A DNA stretch of 64,000 bases from a virus: positions 7,746 through 71,745 of IMG/VR virus record IMGVR_UViG_3300032286_001614. One strand, given 5' to 3'. Shown here in pieces: positions 39,103-46,653 of the stretch; the first letter of the stretch is position 1; every line of letters starts with the position of its first letter. The position numbers and the translations under genes were made by a program. The notes beneath the pieces were generated by a model that saw only the letters and a list, made by a program, of their open reading frames with translations, was not told the origin of the DNA and made no database searches.

Positions 39103-39591
39103 TCATTTGCGAGCGGGAAAAAGAGTTTCGTTTTCCTTTACAAACGAATATAATGTTTGATAAGAATAAAAGTTTAACTCTTTTTCAATCTCCGAAACTT
39201 GTTTACCCGCTTTATATAAAGCTTGCGCTTGTTTGATAAAATTTTGCGCTTTCACGTTTTCTTTATCATTCAAATCACCTTTGGTAAACTTTACCTTTGA
39301 AGATTCTACCTCTTCATTATTCATTCTCCGGCAAATTATTGCGAGGTTTTCAATCCCGCCTAAAGCGGGTGCAATCTCGCAAAGGATAATGCGGGAAAAT
39401 TTTTCCTCGTTATTGCCATGAGTTTCCTCATGCTTTCGTTTGGATTCTTCCAAGGCGGATTCTATAAACTTTTCTGGCAATCCCGCTTCGACAAAAGCTT
39501 TTCGCAAACCTTCACCATTGAAAACCGGAGAAGCGGGAATGCTTTTCAAAGCTTTCATGGCATTAGACAAGGCATTAATAATATCTTTCAT
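39103..39591 (-). CDS. putative HTH DNA-binding protein, paralog of 46162-46653
   Basis: C-terminal QVSEIEKELNFYSYQTLYSF HTH-like motif; clear similarity to paralog. Confidence 0.7.
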   Translation of the reverse strand: MKDIINALSNAMKALKSIPASPVFNGEGLRKAFVEAGLPEKFIESALEESKRKHEETHGNNEEKFSRIILCEIAPALGGIENLAIICRRMNNEEVESSKVKFTKGDLNDKENVKAQNFIKQAQALYKAGKQVSEIEKELNFYSYQTLYSFVKENETLFPARK

Positions 39592-40091
39592 GATAATAAT
39601 CTTTCAATAATAAAAAACCTTTCAACGCGAAAGGTAGCGTTTCGTTTTTCAACGCACAAACGAACAAAGCGGAAAACTCTCAAAGAACGTGTTGGAATCA
39701 CTTCCAACAAATAAGAGGAAAAACTTTTCCGCCGAAAGCTCAAGATCTTTTTCAAAAAACTTTTATGCGTAGAAACACGTATCTTTTCGCGTGAAAGGAA
39801 AACCGGTTGGAAGGCAAATCTTTTCCTAAAAAAAGAAAAGCCATAAGATATTCTAATAGTGAATTAAGGATAAATAATATGTAAAGTTACGATTACTATA
39901 TATACAAGTTACTATTTATTTATTTGTATTTCGTATTTATTTATTCCTATTTATTATTTTGTTATTTTGTTATTTGTATTTAGTATTTCTTTATTAATAT
40001 TTCATATTTGATATTTATTTTTTATTAATATTTATTTGGACACAAAAAAAAGCGACTCCTTTTTTGGAGCCGCTTGTTATTTAATGATCTG

Positions 40092-40295
40092 TTAGAACAA
40101 ATTGATCGATATATTCTGACGGTCATCCGATGTTAAACATACGAAATCAAAAAAGTTTTTTTGAGAAAAAGTCCTCTTTTTTTCTCCAAACTTTTCCGTT
40201 ATTTTCTTTATTAACGGGAACTTTCCATTTATTACCAAACGATTGGTAACTTTTTTTCCGGTTGCACCAGCTGATTTTACGATCTTGATTTTCAT
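40092..40295 (-). CDS. small early-type hypothetical protein
   Basis: Start corrected to MKIKIVK; own promoter and terminator (40045-40075). Confidence 0.65.
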   Translation of the reverse strand: MKIKIVKSAGATGKKVTNRLVINGKFPLIKKITEKFGEKKRTFSQKNFFDFVCLTSDDRQNISINLF

Positions 40296-40449
40296 TTTGT
40301 TTTTTGGTTTTGATAGGTTGGGTTGACGAATAAGAACATACATCATTTACGGGTTAAAACAAGCTTTTTTTTTATTTTTTTAAGTATTATTTTTTTATTT
40401 TTTTTAAAAAAATGCTTGTTTTTTCCGATGGATATGCTATCTTATTATT

Positions 40450-40545
40450 CTAGTTAGGACTTATTCTCCTAGCGTGTGACGGATAAAACCGAACGATTGG
40501 GGGACCGGAGGCTGGACTAATTCCTCAAATTGCGGGCACGTTTGG
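40450..40545. ncRNA. putative small structured RNA, copy 1 (30-nt core 40484-40513)
   Basis: Core TAAAACCGAACGATTGGGGGACCGGAGGCT between convergent sigma70-like promoters; covarying stems. Confidence 0.55.
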
Positions 40546-40727
40546 AAAATTATAACATATTTTCCTTTTAAAGTCAAGCTTTTTTTAAAAAAAATTAATT
40601 ATTTTTTTATTGAAAAATAGTTTTTTATTTAAAGTCAAGCTTTTTTTAAGAAAAATATTTAGGGAAAAATTAACGCAAAAAAAATCCCACCCTAAATTAA
40701 TAGAGCGGGACTTGTTATTTTATTTTT

Positions 40728-41003
40728 TTAACAAAACTTTGCTTGAGCGGTCCGACCCGCAGGAATCCATTTTCCGTTATTTTTATTTAGGATAAAGATT
40801 CTTGGAATTCCCTGCTTTATTGCGGGAATAACTTTAACTTTTCCGAGAAAAGATTCTAGCGTGGAATATATTCCGGTAGGAATAAGAACTTCTTTTCCTT
40901 CCAAGTTAAAATCCTTTGGAAGTTTATTCTTATTCCCAGAAAGGATATAACGCAAATCTTTCATCCGAACCGGATATTTTGTGAAGGTTTTATAGTTTTT
41001 CAT
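40728..41003 (-). CDS. small early-type hypothetical protein
   Basis: Promoter-ORF-terminator cassette. Confidence 0.7.
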   Translation of the reverse strand: MKNYKTFTKYPVRMKDLRYILSGNKNKLPKDFNLEGKEVLIPTGIYSTLESFLGKVKVIPAIKQGIPRIFILNKNNGKWIPAGRTAQAKFC

Positions 41004-41142
41004 ATATTTTTGTGTTTTGGTTTTTGTTAGTGGTTAACTGACAATATATAATATGCTTTATTTTCAGGAAAAAACAAGCTTTTTTTTAAAAAAAAATAAA
41101 AAAAAATCCCACCCTAAATTAATAGAGCGGGACTTAGATTTT

Positions 41143-41487
41143 TTAACAATCAGAAGAAGATAATGCGCATACTATCAAACTATCTGTATTTTGTTTATAA
41201 AGTTTCCTAGCAAACTGCAACGCATCATAAGATTCGTATTTATTGAAACATTGAACTTTATATTTATAGTCAAAATATTCGTTATCGAAATAAATCTCAA
41301 CCGAAAATCCAGTAAGGGAATAATCTCCGATTGCGCGAACTTGAATAGTAAACTTATTCCAAACGTAAACTTCGCTATAATGATAATTTGAAGAATCAGA
41401 AACTTTATTTACCGAAAACATTTTATTGAATTCGGAAATAAAATCCGTAACGATTTTTTTATCTTCTTTCGTGAACTGAGGAATCAT
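41143..41487 (-). CDS. small early-type hypothetical protein
   Basis: Promoter-ORF-terminator cassette. Confidence 0.7.
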   Translation of the reverse strand: MIPQFTKEDKKIVTDFISEFNKMFSVNKVSDSSNYHYSEVYVWNKFTIQVRAIGDYSLTGFSVEIYFDNEYFDYKYKVQCFNKYESYDALQFARKLYKQNTDSLIVCALSSSDC

Positions 41488-41634
41488 AATTTTTATCGGG
41501 CTAGGGTTAATTTTGCTAGTTGGTTTTACTTAACGATAAATAATTTACCATATTTCTGGTAAAAAACAAGCTTTTTTTTAAAAAAATAAAATAAAAAAGG
41601 CGACTCTTTTTAGAGAATCGCCTTTTTGTTTTAT

Positions 41635-41826
41635 TTAAACTATAGTTTTCATTCGTAATTCACGAAGCTTATTTATCATTTCCGCCGCCGACACCCAATT
41701 ATTTTCTTCTCCGTGAAATTTACTTGAATTCAAATAAATGCAAATATTCGTAAGATCCTCTTGAATATCGTGCAATTTATTTTTTAGCTCTTCATTTTCT
41801 TTATTTAGGCGGGTGATATAGTTCAT
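41635..41826 (-). CDS. small coiled-coil hypothetical protein
   Basis: Promoter-ORF-terminator cassette. Confidence 0.7.
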   Translation of the reverse strand: MNYITRLNKENEELKNKLHDIQEDLTNICIYLNSSKFHGEENNWVSAAEMINKLRELRMKTIV

Positions 41827-41941
41827 GGTGGTTTTGTTGGTTAACGATAAATAAGATAACAGATACGTTACCTAAATCAAGCATTATTTTAAAAAAATAA
41901 AATAAAAAATCCGCTCCTTTTTATAGAAGCGGATATTTTAA

Positions 41942-42193
41942 TTAAACAAAAAATTCAAATTTTTTACCCATATAAGGGATTTGGTGAATAGCCCAACTCC
42001 ACCCTCTTTTATTTAAAAGACAAGTGGACGTTCTAGATAAAACAACTCCATCCATTATTTTGTTATCAGCTAATTTTATTTTTTGATATGTCAATTCATA
42101 TCCACGCTTTGGTAGATTTTTATTTATTTTTCCAGCAGCTTTATCTGAAATAGTATAAAAGCCAGAGTCTAAATATTTTGCGGTGAATTTCAT
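41942..42193 (-). CDS. small early-type hypothetical protein
   Basis: Start corrected to MKFTAK; own promoter and terminator. Confidence 0.65.
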   Translation of the reverse strand: MKFTAKYLDSGFYTISDKAAGKINKNLPKRGYELTYQKIKLADNKIMDGVVLSRTSTCLLNKRGWSWAIHQIPYMGKKFEFFV

Positions 42194-42336
42194 TTTTATA
42201 GGTGGTTTGGGTTGACGAATAAAACCATATATCATTTGCAGGCTAAATCAAGCTTTTTTTTAATTATTTTAATTATTTTTTTTATTTTTTTTAAAAAAAC
42301 ACTTGTTTTTTTCTATTAGTGTGCTATTCTATTTTT

Positions 42337-42432
42337 CTAGTCAAGGTTTATTCCCTTGGCGTGTGACCGATAAAACGGAACGATTGGGGGACCGGAGGCT
42401 AGACTTTTTTTTTAAAATAAAAAATAGTTTGG
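42337..42432. ncRNA. putative small structured RNA, copy 2 (core 42371-42400)
   Basis: Core TAAAACGGAACGATTGGGGGACCGGAGGCT; same convergent promoter layout. Confidence 0.55.
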
Positions 42433-42533
42433 AAAATTATAACATATTTTTTATTTTAAATCAAGTATTTTTTTTATTTTATTTAAAAAATTTTCCCCAA
42501 CAAATTAATGTCGGGGAATCGTTTTTTTAAGAA

Positions 42534-42951
<418 letters not shown>

Positions 42952-43027
42952 GACGCTATAAATCTAGCAAATACGGCAGGTAAATCAAGCTTTTTTTAAT
43001 TATTTTAATTATTTTTTTTAAAAAAAT

Positions 43028-43285
43028 TTAAATTAATTCAATCTTTCTATATTCCAATTTAAACTGTTTAATTCCCTTATACTTTTCTTTTAACTTGGGA
43101 ATATAAGAATTCGCCTGTGCTTTTGTTTCAAATTCCGTGGCCAAACTCCATGCAAATTCGCACATAGAAAAATTTTGAGTCGGCGAATTAATAAAATAAA
43201 GATTACGGCGGCAATTAATATCTGTTTTCCCAATGATTGCGAAAACATATTTAAATTTTTTATTTCTATTTTTATTTTTACTCAT
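43028..43285 (-). CDS. small early-type hypothetical protein
   Basis: 85 aa with upstream GCTTGTTT..TGCTATCTT promoter. Confidence 0.7.
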   Translation of the reverse strand: MSKNKNRNKKFKYVFAIIGKTDINCRRNLYFINSPTQNFSMCEFAWSLATEFETKAQANSYIPKLKEKYKGIKQFKLEYRKIELI

Positions 43286-43374
43286 ATTTTTTTGCGGTTA
43301 ATGGTTGGCTGAATCTATAAGATAGCATAAACAACGAATTAAACAAGCTTTTATTTATTTAATTTTAATTAAAA

Positions 43375-44015
43375 TTAATTTTGCTGCAATATCTGGGTTA
43401 ACCTAAAACTTTTTAAGGCTGCTGCGTAGGAAATTAAATACAATTTCCCCCTTTAAATAAAAAGGGAGAAAAGTTATATTATTTACCTGAGTTAACCTTT
43501 TTTAAGGTGTGGTGAGGTTTCATTATATAGCAGGGCAACTTATGATTTTTAATCATTCAATATTTTATTTATCGCTCAAAACTTACCTCTAAAGCGCGAT
43601 TGATATTTTTAATTATCAAACGAAATATTGTCCTTATCCGTAGATAAAAGGTCGGGGGTCAGATATTTAAATTATTAATTTAAATTTTTGATTCATCCCT
43701 GCAATGGCATTTATTTATTATTAGCTACGCTAATTTAGTAAAAATAAAATAGTTTTTTAATTTTCCTAGAATTTGCATTTCGCAGGACTAGGGCACGAAG
43801 AAACTTAACTTCGCTGCATTATTTTAATGCCCTTGTAACTCTCCTTATCTTTTCAGCGCACCCGCTATCATCACGACATGAGGTTTAATTATTTCTAATT
43901 CGCTTACTTTCAGAAGTGCCTTCCAATTTTCATTGGATTGGACTTAATCTTTACAAGTAGATTGTTAAACAGTTAAATTAACCAAAAAGAACTAATTGAT
44001 CCCGAGTATCAATCA
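43375..44015 (-). ncRNA. putative large structured non-coding RNA (~640 nt), family not recognised
   Basis: No ORF of 60 aa or more; many nested helices, GAAA and cUACGg tetraloops on the minus strand, promoter at 44021-44050. Confidence 0.65.
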
Positions 44016-44057
44016 TAAGTATAATACACCTTATTCCTAATAAATGTCAAAGTTTTT

Positions 44058-44576
44058 TCAAATATTTTTAAGAATCTCTACATATTTTTTTCCCCTGCCT
44101 CCGGTTTGCTTATACCAGCGCGAATCTTTTAATTCCGCCGCCGCTTTATTATAATCTTTCTTTTCAATTGCCGCAGTAAAATCTTTGAATTTTTTAATTC
44201 TATTTGGCCCCAGATTGTAAGCTAGGCTTATTAATATTATTTGAACATTTTGTGGTTGCGAATTGAAAGATTTAAACTGTTTATGCGCAATCTGTTCTGC
44301 GATTTTTACATCCTCTTTTAACCATTTATTAAGTAAACAATTATCAATATTTTGCCCAACCTTATACTTATCTTGTAAACCCTTAGATTCTAAATTTGTT
44401 CCGCCACCAACAGTTTTATGTCCAGTCGGGCAAATATATACTTTATTGCTCCATCCTTCGTATTTAATAATATGCGTTTTAATATTATCGAATGAAGGCG
44501 CGGCATTAATAATAGACGCGCCGCCAATAATAATACCGATTGAGATAAGTTTAAGATTTTTATAGAATGTTTTCAT
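44058..44576 (-). CDS. lysozyme (GH24-like) with N-terminal hydrophobic segment
   Basis: KYEG...YICPTGHKTVGGG, AYNLG, AAAELKDSRWYKQ. Confidence 0.88.
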   Translation of the reverse strand: MKTFYKNLKLISIGIIIGGASIINAAPSFDNIKTHIIKYEGWSNKVYICPTGHKTVGGGTNLESKGLQDKYKVGQNIDNCLLNKWLKEDVKIAEQIAHKQFKSFNSQPQNVQIILISLAYNLGPNRIKKFKDFTAAIEKKDYNKAAAELKDSRWYKQTGGRGKKYVEILKNI

Positions 44577-44600
44577 ATAATTTATTTAATTTAACTTAAT

Positions 44601-44819
44601 TTATTCTGCGCGATAAATTTCCAAAGATTCCCACGATGGAATATCATAAGGGGAACAAACTTCCTTATTCCTTTCCTTACGAAATTGCATTTCCTTATTA
44701 TAACTTGCGCGACTAACAATAATATTTCCGCCGCCGCCATAAGGCAAAAGACGAACTTCTTTAGAAACAACTCCGTAGTCATCAATAAAAGAATTGATGG
44801 TTGATTTAATATTTTGCAT
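44601..44819 (-). CDS. small hypothetical protein
   Basis: 72 aa in operon with lysozyme. Confidence 0.65.
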   Translation of the reverse strand: MQNIKSTINSFIDDYGVVSKEVRLLPYGGGGNIIVSRASYNKEMQFRKERNKEVCSPYDIPSWESLEIYRAE

Positions 44820-44832
44820 ATGATTCGTTTTA

Positions 44833-45033
44833 TTAATTGGTGTGATTCAAGAAAATTTTATATCCTTTATTATTAACAAGAATTTCCACTTCCTCACTCG
44901 TTACTTGCGAAATGCTCGCAAAGTTTCCAGCAAGTTTCCTAGAAAGATTCTCGGCGAGAATAATATCTTTAGAATTAATAACTTGAACAAAATTCCCGAA
45001 GGAATGATTTACTGCGAAGTAATAATTTTTCAT
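44833..45033 (-). CDS. small hypothetical protein
   Basis: 66 aa, promoter at about 45065-45095. Confidence 0.65.
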   Translation of the reverse strand: MKNYYFAVNHSFGNFVQVINSKDIILAENLSRKLAGNFASISQVTSEEVEILVNNKGYKIFLNHTN

Positions 45034-45295
45034 AACGATGTGGTTTTAAGTTAACTGAGCCAATAGAATACGTTAAAATTAGGTATTATTCAAGTAAATA
45101 ATTAAAAAAAATTCATGCCTTAATATTGACTTACGTAATTTTGCAAATTAATTGCGTTTTAAAGTTTACCTATGAAAAAGTGTTTTTTTTCACTGGGTTT
45201 TAATAAAACCGAAAATTACGTAAGTCATTTAGATTTTTTTTAATTTTCTTTAAAAAAAAGCTTGTTTTCTTCTTTGGATATGCTATCTTATTTCC

Positions 45296-45420
45296 ATCGA
45301 CAGGACTTGTAAGGGGCCAAATTAATGAAACCCCATCTCTCCTGAAAGATTTGACCTTTAAAACGGAACGATTGGGGGACCGGAGGCTACGCAAATTTCT
45401 TGGGGCACAAGCCCGTTTGG
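45296..45420. ncRNA. putative small structured RNA, copy 3 (core 45359-45388)
   Basis: Core identical to copy 2; first stem CAGGA/TCCTG expanded with a GGGG/CCCC insert. Confidence 0.55.
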
Positions 45421-45445
45421 AAATTTTACCACAAAAAAACTTTAA

Positions 45446-46096
45446 TGTCAAGCTTTTTTTTAATTTTTTTTCTGAAATAAAAGAATACCCCTTCCCGCCC
45501 TTGGGAAAATATATTATTCCTAGAGCTTGTCAAGCCTATTTTTAAAAAAAATGATACGTATTAATACGTATTTTTAAATAAAAAAAATGCTTGACTTATT
45601 TATAATTAACTATATATGCGAATTTTCAAATAGTGATTTTTTAAAAAAAGTCAAGAATAAAATTAATTATTTTTTTAACCTAAAGATCAGCCCCAGCCCC
45701 ACCCTGGAAAAATATACTATTTTGCGTAAATGTCAAGCATATTTTTTTATTATTTTTGCGCTTATATTTATTATTTTTATTAATGTCAAACATATTTTTT
45801 AAAAAAAATTTTGTTTATATTTATTATCTAAATTATTGTCAAGCATTTAATTAAATTATTTTTTAAGAATTAAGTCCGCCCCAGCCCCACCCCGGAAGTA
45901 AATCATAAAACGGTTTGCTTGTCAAGCATATTTTTTATTTATTTTTTTTATTTTTTTAAAAATTATCTTGACATTATTATTATTTCTGTTATACGCAAAT
46001 TTAATGAAATTGCGCATTTTAACACAAAATTTAATAAAAGTCAAGCAATTTTTAAATTATTTTTTGCCTTATATATTATTATAAATTAATGTCAAA
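45446..46096. promoter_or_regulatory. array of TTGAC/GTCAA sites with A/T tracts and C-rich boxes
   Basis: About 11 TTGAC(A/T) hexamers on both strands, no credible ORF. Confidence 0.65.
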
Positions 46097-46161
46097 CAAT
46101 TATTAAAAAAAATATATAATAAAAAGGCCCGACTTTTATTAAGTCGAGCCTTTGTTTTTAA

Positions 46162-46653
46162 TTAATTACGCTTAGGAAAAATTTCTTTATTATCACGAAT
46201 AAAACTATTCAGCGTCGCATAAGAATAGAAATTTAATTTTTCCACAATTTCACTAACTTGCTGATTATTATCATTATAAAGAATCTTAACTTTATCTAAA
46301 AAGTTTTGGGATTCTTTATTATTTAAATCAGACAATTCTTTAATAGTGAATTTGACCTTAGAATTTTCAATTTGCTCATTTTTAATTGTGCGAATTAAAG
46401 AAGAAAACTCTTCGATCCCACCCAGAACAGGAATAATTTCATTAAGAATAATACGAGCGATTTTCTGAGTATTATCGCCGTGAATTTCATTATGTTTATT
46501 ACGCAATTCTTCAATTGCGCTATTAACAAACTTTTCTGGCAATCCCATTTTAGAAAATTCAGCTTTAATATTGCTATCGTCAAAAATTGGCGATGCAGGA
46601 ATATTTTTAATATTCTTAACGGAGTTTTGCAGGGCATTAATAATTTCTTTCAT
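46162..46653 (-). CDS. putative HTH DNA-binding protein, paralog of 39103-39591
   Basis: QVSEIVEKLNFYSYATLNSF; terminator at 46121-46153. Confidence 0.7.
   Translation of the reverse strand: MKEIINALQNSVKNIKNIPASPIFDDSNIKAEFSKMGLPEKFVNSAIEELRNKHNEIHGDNTQKIARIILNEIIPVLGGIEEFSSLIRTIKNEQIENSKVKFTIKELSDLNNKESQNFLDKVKILYNDNNQQVSEIVEKLNFYSYATLNSFIRDNKEIFPKRN

Follow-up and report, generated by a model that had tools for sequence, protein, structure and literature searches.

The DNA analysed here (hereafter the window) is a 64-kb stretch of a 71.7-kb virus record of IMG/VR (IMGVR_UViG_3300032286_001614, positions 7,746 to 71,745 of 71,745 b). The record is rated ~47% complete, and the window has a G+C content of 0.30. 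The source is an uncultured freshwater phage. Pfam and PHROGs scans, each taking in 20 open reading frames (ORFs) as a subset of all ORFs, identified a tape measure protein, tail proteins, a terminase, a lysozyme, ClpP, Hsp20 and a MoxR-like ATPase. No close cultured relative was found; the best cultured terminase relative shows 24.6% identity, and this value, together with the PHROGs scans, sets the phage apart from the T4 type. Dispersed among small minus-strand genes of this genome are three copies of a short cassette, each of them probably an independently transcribed, structured non-coding small RNA (sRNA) gene read from the plus strand. When the cassette region was compared with 50,697 phage records, the sole DNA match was one of 54 nt and of low value. 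The features of the three copies are given below. Transcription starts are inferred from the promoter motifs, and the end given for the copy 1 RNA is a possible one; scores in bits come from the covariance model described further on, and fractions from a promoter consensus scan.

40416..40443, plus strand: copy 1, sRNA promoter TTGTTT-16-TGC-TATCTT, inferred start near 40450
40450..40573, plus strand: copy 1, inferred RNA body (77.5 bits)
40454-40472, plus strand: copy 1, 5′ hairpin (UAGGA/UCCUA)
40477-40479, plus strand: copy 1, UGA
40480-40491, plus strand: copy 1, short hairpin CGG-AUAAAA-CCG
40492-40510, plus strand: copy 1, invariant stretch AACGAUUGGGGGACCGGAG
40544-40573, plus strand: copy 1, A/U hairpin plus U4, possible end
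40549..40577 (read 40577-40549), minus strand: copy 1, facing promoter TTGACT-17-TATAAT with TG (11/12)
42303..42330, plus strand: copy 2, sRNA promoter TTGTTT-16-TGC-TATTCT, inferred start near 42337
42337..42460, plus strand: copy 2, inferred RNA body (75.1 bits)
42341-42359, plus strand: copy 2, 5′ hairpin (CAAGG/CCUUG)
42364-42366, plus strand: copy 2, UGA
42367-42378, plus strand: copy 2, short hairpin CCG-AUAAAA-CGG
42379-42397, plus strand: copy 2, invariant stretch
Further downstream, plus strand: copy 2, U9 run after GGCUAGAC
42436..42464 (read 42464-42436), minus strand: copy 2, facing promoter TTGATT-17-TATAAT with TG (10/12)
45262..45289, plus strand: copy 3, sRNA promoter TTGTTT-16-TGC-TATCTT, inferred start near 45296
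45296..45420, plus strand: copy 3, inferred RNA body (70.8 bits)
45301-45305 with 45340-45344, plus strand: copy 3, outer 5′ stem (CAGGA with UCCUG)
45313-45334, plus strand: copy 3, inserted GGGG/CCCC hairpin inside the outer stem
45355-45356 with 45365-45366, plus strand: copy 3, short hairpin, weakened (CC with GG)
45367-45385, plus strand: copy 3, invariant stretch
Plus strand: copy 3, GGGC/GCCC hairpin ahead of GUUUGG
45423..45451 (read 45451-45423), minus strand: copy 3, facing promoter TTGACA-17-TAAAAT with TG (11/12)

An initial annotation, made from the letters of the window, had proposed a 30-nt core at 40484, 42371 and 45359, placed between convergent promoters. The core was indeed found at these three plus-strand positions with no mismatches, and it gave no match in 100 dinucleotide shuffles. 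Over the whole 71,745-b record it occurs three times in the forward direction and never in reverse, and a covariance model search of the window and of the remaining 7.7 kb detected no further copy. When aligned, the three cassettes showed a mean identity of 77% over ~230–260 nt. Each core lies 45–75 nt downstream of a TTGTTT-16-TGC-TAT(C/T)(T/C)T promoter. These plus promoters (-35 regions at 40416, 42303 and 45262, as proposed) were confirmed by direct reading and score too low to pass the consensus scan, which required 8 of 12. They belong to the type found before the surrounding small minus-strand genes (an A-tract, GCTTG(T/A)TT and a TATGCTATCTTAT-like -10 region), sharing with the promoters ahead of those genes the arrangement GCTTGTTT...TATGCTATCTTAT, which in the window takes the form AAAGCTTGTTT. 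The facing minus promoters, which scored 11/12, 10/12 and 11/12 and all carry a TG extension, were as predicted; they are near-consensus and among the best sigma-70-like sites of the 39800–46200 region. As a class, promoter-like sites were not enriched in this A/T-rich region (41, against 34.8 ± 6.0 in shuffles). The inferred start-to-start distances of the facing promoters are ~93, 93 and 121 nt, in agreement with the ~95–125 nt first proposed. The overlaps thus delimited (~40450–40542, 42337–42429 and 45296–45416) contain no ORF of at least 40 aa starting inside them on either strand, and the next minus-strand gene beyond each overlap has an additional promoter of its own.

The expectation that the element is multicopy held as well, with three copies here and extra copies in relatives. 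An exact 18-mer of the core was present at 32 loci in metagenome contigs, which their flanks separated into 15 family members and 17 unrelated sequences. Viral contigs added the loci L006, L048/L050, L049, L094 and L122. A covariance model built from 12 copies gave 25 matches, 22 of them distinct, in 16 sources; the collected set consists of these 22 distinct copies plus L094 and L122. Among the matches are divergent extra copies with changes inside the core (GAAUGG, UUAGGGG, AAUGAGUGG, UUGGAGG, GGCGG). Contigs L024 and L032, which are close, syntenic relatives of the window, carry four copies each, and L039 and L094 two each. The GC-richer viral records that were searched whole (n = 3) contain a single copy each. 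The contigs of many relatives stop less than 1 kb from the element and may conceal further copies.

The window (G000), L024 and L032 form an AT-rich group that has 0–2 ORFs in common with the GC-richer loci; the latter are loosely related among themselves, and the records compared are partial. Despite this, a stretch of 15–19 nt is identical between the two groups, the genomes of which have 30% and 45% G+C. In every lineage the element is preceded by its own promoter, of the type resident in the phage that carries it, and begins within a few bases of the inferred start site. In the GC-richer phages G001 (loci L244–L247) and G002 (L248–L249) this resident promoter is TTGACATTTTATAAAA. Of its ten occurrences in G001, eight are on the gene strand, where the distance from the start of the motif to an ATG is 35–36 nt in six instances and 49–50 nt in two; many early messages of the GC-richer relatives are, on the evidence of these distances, probably leaderless. 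The remaining two occurrences are on the opposite strand, and one of them precedes the element by 63 nt. At G001:C1:44191 (plus strand), 770 nt upstream of the element's own promoter, there is a second promoter motif; the sequence after it, GGCGAGGCUGCGC, is similar to the 3′ portion of the G001 core and may be a decayed copy.

The cassettes match no Rfam family. Rfam 15 (4227 models) gave no match at gathering score over the whole window, and at E values of up to 10 over the 5.3-kb region there was none at any of the three copies; the loci of six relatives gave none at E values of up to 5. A new RNA motif family is well supported; it is of a known general kind, that of a predicted phage sRNA with an antisense partner, its unusual trait being a letter-for-letter conservation across phages without common genes.

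All copies have the same layout: a promoter, one or more variable 5′ hairpins, a UGA (mostly within GUGA), a hairpin of 3–4 bp, the stretch AACGAUUGGGGGACC, a less constant part and free sequence. The loop of the short hairpin is AUAAAA, or else AUCAAA or AUAAAC, and its stem takes the forms CGG/CCG, CCG/CGG, GGCG/CGCC, GGU/ACU and GGG/CCU. The part that follows AACGAUUGGGGGACC can be written (G/A)G(A/C)G(G/C)CU-NCNC-AAAU, the usual continuation being GGAGGCU. The GGAGG/CCTCC that was initially pointed out within the core is present here but is not conserved, since relatives read GGAGC, GGAGA or GGCGG.

Both stems for which compensatory changes had been proposed are supported by the relatives, across which both helices covary. 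The swap between CGG/CCG and CCG/CGG is present in the window, and the short hairpin covaries across the 22 distinct copies. In their alignment, which was fitted by the covariance model and hence leans towards the model structure, 96% of 124 cells of this hairpin plus a 3-bp extension are paired, and 13 cells are changed on both sides. None of 500 shuffles reached this covariation score, and slid controls were 27–58% paired. A compensatory change from CGU/ACG to CAU/AUG in copy L032:2068 supports the 3-bp helix adjoining the short hairpin. The 5′ stems UAGGA/UCCUA, CAAGG/CCUUG and CAGGA/UCCUG of the three copies are also present, and their pairing is maintained with covariation: in the nine AT-rich-group copies examined, all cells are paired and three of the six pairs are changed on both sides, with forms such as UAGGA/UCCUA, CAAGG/CCUUG, UUAAGG/CCUUAA and UUAAGA/UCUUAA. 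The short hairpin contains G-U pairs (GU in two rows at pair 9/29 and UG in 18 rows at pair 4/33), and the outer pair of the 5′ hairpin is UG in five of the nine AT-rich-group copies. On the opposite strand these G-U pairs would be A-C mismatches in both helices, which indicates that the RNA is read from the plus strand.

The copies in the window, L024 and L032 all point the same way at intervals of 2–3 kb and are antisense to the small genes on either side, each of which has its own promoter and a minus-strand terminator. The gene modules between the cassettes differ among these three genomes; a 304-aa gene located between two copies in L024 and L032 is not found in the window, and neither is the L024 cassette at 6350. 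Downstream of all 11 AT-rich-group copies there is a facing promoter of the resident type, and this is also so for L006, L022, L035, L037, L048 and L039:924 (read by eye). The facing convergent promoter originally described is therefore present with most copies, but it was not seen in L012/L030, L021/L039:98 or L049; L012/L030 and L021/L039:98 have a same-strand promoter after the element instead. In L012/L030, the neighbouring genes and promoters are all co-directional with the element, in line with the reading strand deduced from the G-U pairs, and this lineage has a cluster of 10–11 tRNA genes within a few kb (L030 3658–7015, L012 8629–11090). Nearly all neighbour ORF families shared between loci of the AT-rich group, or of the L021/L035/L048/L050 lineage, run opposite to the element, and the same-strand ORF clusters near it overlap opposite-strand ORFs. 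No neighbour gene common to the AT-rich and GC-richer groups was found. A second hairpin motif, GACUACCCCUGACUCAAGUAGU, occurs once per locus in L006 (12160–12185), L022, L035, L037 and L048. It was found only beside the element, always 3′ of the core and at the start of the facing transcript, the facing promoter having no ATG. Its stem changes register between L006 and L035 and yet stays paired.

Taken together, these features suggest a tentative reading, to which we would give somewhat less than an even chance as a whole, of an sRNA with a docking tail for a shared factor, a dose set by the number of copies, and control by antisense RNA and collision. The phage's own promoter type would start the RNA a few bases before the variable 5′ hairpin. 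The invariant stretch, placed beside a hairpin with a conserved loop, would be bound by a factor, most likely a host protein, that very different phage-host pairs have in common. Acting in trans, the RNA might then be a sponge, a decoy or an adaptor, its several copies raising the dose. The convergent promoter present with most copies would make a fully complementary antisense RNA, and the two units could silence each other through polymerase collision and RNA duplex formation, thus forming a timing switch at the borders of the early modules. A host protein is preferred to an RNA partner because no long complement was found in 185,579 species genomes, and because the window, G001 and G002, scored on both strands by ungapped complementarity with G-U allowed, contain no core complement that beats shuffled cores other than the element's own antisense strand. 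The partner is placed outside the phage because the AT-rich and GC-richer groups, with their 0–2 common ORFs, have no common candidate protein and nevertheless carry the identical stretch.

Several observations weigh against this reading. No clear intrinsic terminator was detected after copies 1 and 2 under the criteria of the scan, and the RNA may consequently not be a discrete small species. In single-sequence folds, two of the three plus-strand copies were no stabler than shuffles. The G-run can pair with the pyrimidine strand of the 5′ hairpin, so the tail may be masked; RNAalifold favours one long hairpin of this kind, in which that strand pairs with AUUGGGGGA. The duplex energies of such long-range pairing were no better than those of mononucleotide shuffles (mean z -0.78 upstream and -0.26 downstream), and the tail may be either free or maskable according to these models. 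The search of bacterial genomes that was proposed at the outset gave eight matches to the exact 18-mer, on either strand, in the 185,579 species genomes; all are unrelated to the family and lie in coding-like DNA of high-G+C metagenome-assembled genomes, none is an array, and no bacterial RNA gene in this set contains the 18-mer. A long RNA-RNA target in the host is thus unlikely, and a protein partner is purely conjectural. Finally, the partner could be a shared phage protein, given that the phage records are only about 50% complete.

A purely cis-acting switch is a rather unlikely alternative. Plus-strand transcription would collide with, and be antisense to, the minus promoter that feeds the next early module, thereby shutting it off, and co-oriented cassettes every 2–3 kb would lay antisense RNA over the whole early region. 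Convergent-promoter switches of this kind are known from P22 (Pant/Psar) and from the face-to-face promoters of coliphage 186. The resident-type facing promoter after all 11 AT-rich-group copies and after L006, L022, L035, L037, L048 and L039:924 is consistent with such a switch. So are the rank of the facing promoters among the best sigma-70-like sites of the region, the mostly opposite-strand shared neighbour ORFs of the AT-rich group and of the L021/L035/L048/L050 lineage, the GACUACCCCUGACUCAAGUAGU hairpin at the start of the facing transcript in the GC-richer group, once per locus and only beside the element, and the fact that, in three phage records, nothing but the element's own antisense strand is strongly complementary to the core. 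However, interference needs no particular sequence, leaving the 15–19 nt identity and the covarying hairpins without explanation; moreover, the facing promoter was not seen in L012/L030, L021/L039:98 and L049, and the overlap lies in a non-coding leader rather than over a ribosome-binding site. A put-like antiterminator, the nascent hairpins and conserved stretch of which would bind their own host RNA polymerase so that it reads through the terminators found after every early gene, is improbable. It would account for the position of the element a few bases from the inferred start in every lineage, for its two hairpins with no consistent terminator of its own, and for the genes that follow on the same strand in L012/L030, and host RNA polymerase might be conserved enough to explain identity across unrelated phages. 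Still, this argument is drawn from position alone, and in the window and its close relatives there are no downstream plus-strand genes, so read-through would give only antisense RNA. We consider it equally improbable that the cassettes are border repeats acting at the DNA level, that is, promoter/stem-loop (PeSL)-like repeats driving module shuffling by recombination, with the core as a DNA site. The syntenic window, L024 and L032 do differ by whole cassette-bounded modules, and the many contigs that end less than 1 kb from the element do so as expected for assembly-breaking repeats. Recombination, however, requires neither covarying hairpins with G-U pairs on one strand nor conservation across phages without common genes; in addition, the phage is not T4-like, and its cumulative GC skew has no extremum and hence gives no sign of an origin.

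There is also a small chance that the RNA serves counter-defence, the hairpin-plus-tail mimicking the RNA ligand of a conserved immune effector of the host or of a rival phage, for example the repeat handle of an uncatalogued CRISPR effector; the letters would be kept because the effector is shared, and the copies would raise the dose. A decoy of the Racr type seems a slimmer prospect still; here a single copy of a CRISPR repeat, or of some other RNA ligand of a defence system, would be expressed from a promoter and titrate the effector protein. Solitary repeat units are described as promoter-proximal (within 250 bp) and without adjacent cas genes, and SRUFinder accepts them when identity to a known CRISPR repeat and coverage are both 90% or more (PMC10651486). 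The element fits the former description: its conserved ~36–50 nt with an internal hairpin is solitary (copies 2–3 kb apart), multicopy and 45–75 nt behind a promoter, and no Cas family was found among the 20 Pfam-scanned and 20 PHROGs-scanned ORFs. The Cas12j-2 repeat (PMC11048056) shares the blocks AACGATTG and GGGGAC with the core, and the LwaCas13a repeat (PMC11281484) shares GACUACCCC with the second motif GACUACCCCUGACUCAAGUAGU of the GC-richer group. The first likeness amounts to 8 + 6 = 14 of 36 letters in two blocks and the repeat hairpin is missing, while the second comprises nine letters in short blocks; both are far below the 90% rule. Two different repeat types match equally well, as chance would give, and the likeness is at chance level by this comparison. 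No Rfam CRISPR-DR match was obtained at E values of up to 10, and no IMG/VR array contained the 14-mer (75 loci with one match each); a gapped scan for arrays likewise gave single matches only among the matches listed. The peptide MT(D/F)KTERLGDRRL, put forward initially as an alternative to the RNA, was rejected and is extremely unlikely. The frame exists: CGA-UUG-GGG is open through the core in 15 of 15 variants, a GTG or TTG stands 18 nt before the CGA codon in 12, and several differences are synonymous. But the start codon is out of frame in the other three variants (L012, L032:4199–4254 and L039:98–153, which have a 4-bp stem and the GUGA shifted by 2 nt), one of which, L012 (found in five metagenomes), has no start codon at all. 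No ribosome-binding motif was found for this frame, the stops yield from 14 to more than 60 residues, and the residues before RLGDRR differ (EAIKRQ against TDKTE) where the nucleotides are conserved. The ‘synonymous’ swaps fall on both partners of a base pair. Judged from these variants, selection acts on RNA or DNA, not on protein.

Other candidate readings were discarded. A leader ORF that stops at the UGA within GUGA lacks generality, since copy 3, L012 and L022 do not have it. A sigma-54 promoter (GG-N10-GC) was rejected by eye, the GC being lost in L006 and L012, as were K-turn and hammerhead-like readings. A replication origin was rejected on the grounds that cumulative GC skew has no extremum at the cassettes. 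The 11 letters GAGGACCGGAG of variants L048 and L024:8482 also occur in a sarcin-ricin loop oligonucleotide (PMC3496166). Mimicry of this loop is at chance level, since aligning seven members to a 6-kb rRNA locus gave scores of 20–21 against shuffle means of 20.8–21.5; the loop was never the best match in this alignment, which used one genome. The 14-mer, as DNA, RNA or reverse complement, was not found in the main texts of the literature searched, and an 8-letter word appeared only in unrelated papers.

Some further features of the region were recorded. On the minus strand at 43360–44050, an ORF-free stretch of ~570–640 nt lies between a strong promoter (TTGACA-18-TATTAT, 44050–44021, 11/12) and a terminator (43471–43444). 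It has no Rfam match, and the syntenic place in L024 lacks it, the homologues of 43028–43285 and of the lysozyme gene being 70 nt apart there; the stretch is a candidate for a large non-coding RNA on an inserted segment. The segment 45450–46160 is a gene-less array of TTGACA-type promoters, three of which are followed by the minus-strand G-run boxes GGGCGGGAAGGGG, GGGUGGGGCUGGGG and GGGGUGGGGCUGGGGCGG; their transcripts, like the sRNA core, would be G-rich in very A/T-rich DNA. The cassette island is flanked by genes for paralogous proteins of 162/163 aa (39103–39591 and 46162–46653, minus strand) without a Pfam match. A homologue with 72% identity is present in L004, in which the covariance model detected no copy of the element. 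Two identical terminators at 40682–40713 and 41104–41135 (minus strand) contain a G-U pair on the minus strand that would be an A-C mismatch on the plus strand, and L004 has a near-identical one.

To our knowledge, few sRNAs have been described from virulent uncultured phages, and very few are common to phages without common genes. That 15–19 nt should be identical between genomes as different as 30% and 45% in G+C suggests one conserved molecular partner, and finding it could reveal a host process or a defence faced by many freshwater phages. The covariance model may serve as a marker for phages of ~140–150 kb that are barely connected by protein searches, and the cassettes mark the borders at which early-gene modules are exchanged.

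Phage cis-antisense sRNAs made from convergent promoters include P22 sar, which acts against ant, and lambda OOP, against cII. The cassettes resemble them in arrangement: a short non-coding transcript with a promoter of its own is opposed by a stronger promoter, with an overlap of ~90–120 nt, here predicted from motifs. They differ in having no sequence or Rfam kinship with them, in being multicopy, in an overlap that does not cover a known gene start or end, and in being conserved also in phages without a facing promoter. The put RNA of HK022 is a promoter-proximal antiterminator. Like it, and with position and hairpin count as the features compared, the element is promoter-proximal, has two hairpins, occurs in several copies per genome and could have host polymerase as its partner; unlike it, it has no downstream sense-strand genes in the phage studied here. 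The Racr RNA anti-CRISPRs (PMC10651486) are also small, solitary, promoter-proximal, hairpin-bearing and located in phage intergenic regions, and dose matters for them; the element differs from them in that the two repeats compared fall short of 90% identity and resemble it in short blocks. PeSLs, the promoter/stem-loop cassettes of T4-type phages (PMC2839356, PMC4122927), are likewise repeated regulatory cassettes that border small early modules of variable content. By contrast, the phage described here is not T4-like, and its cassettes have a predicted transcribed, structured core that is identical across unrelated phages.

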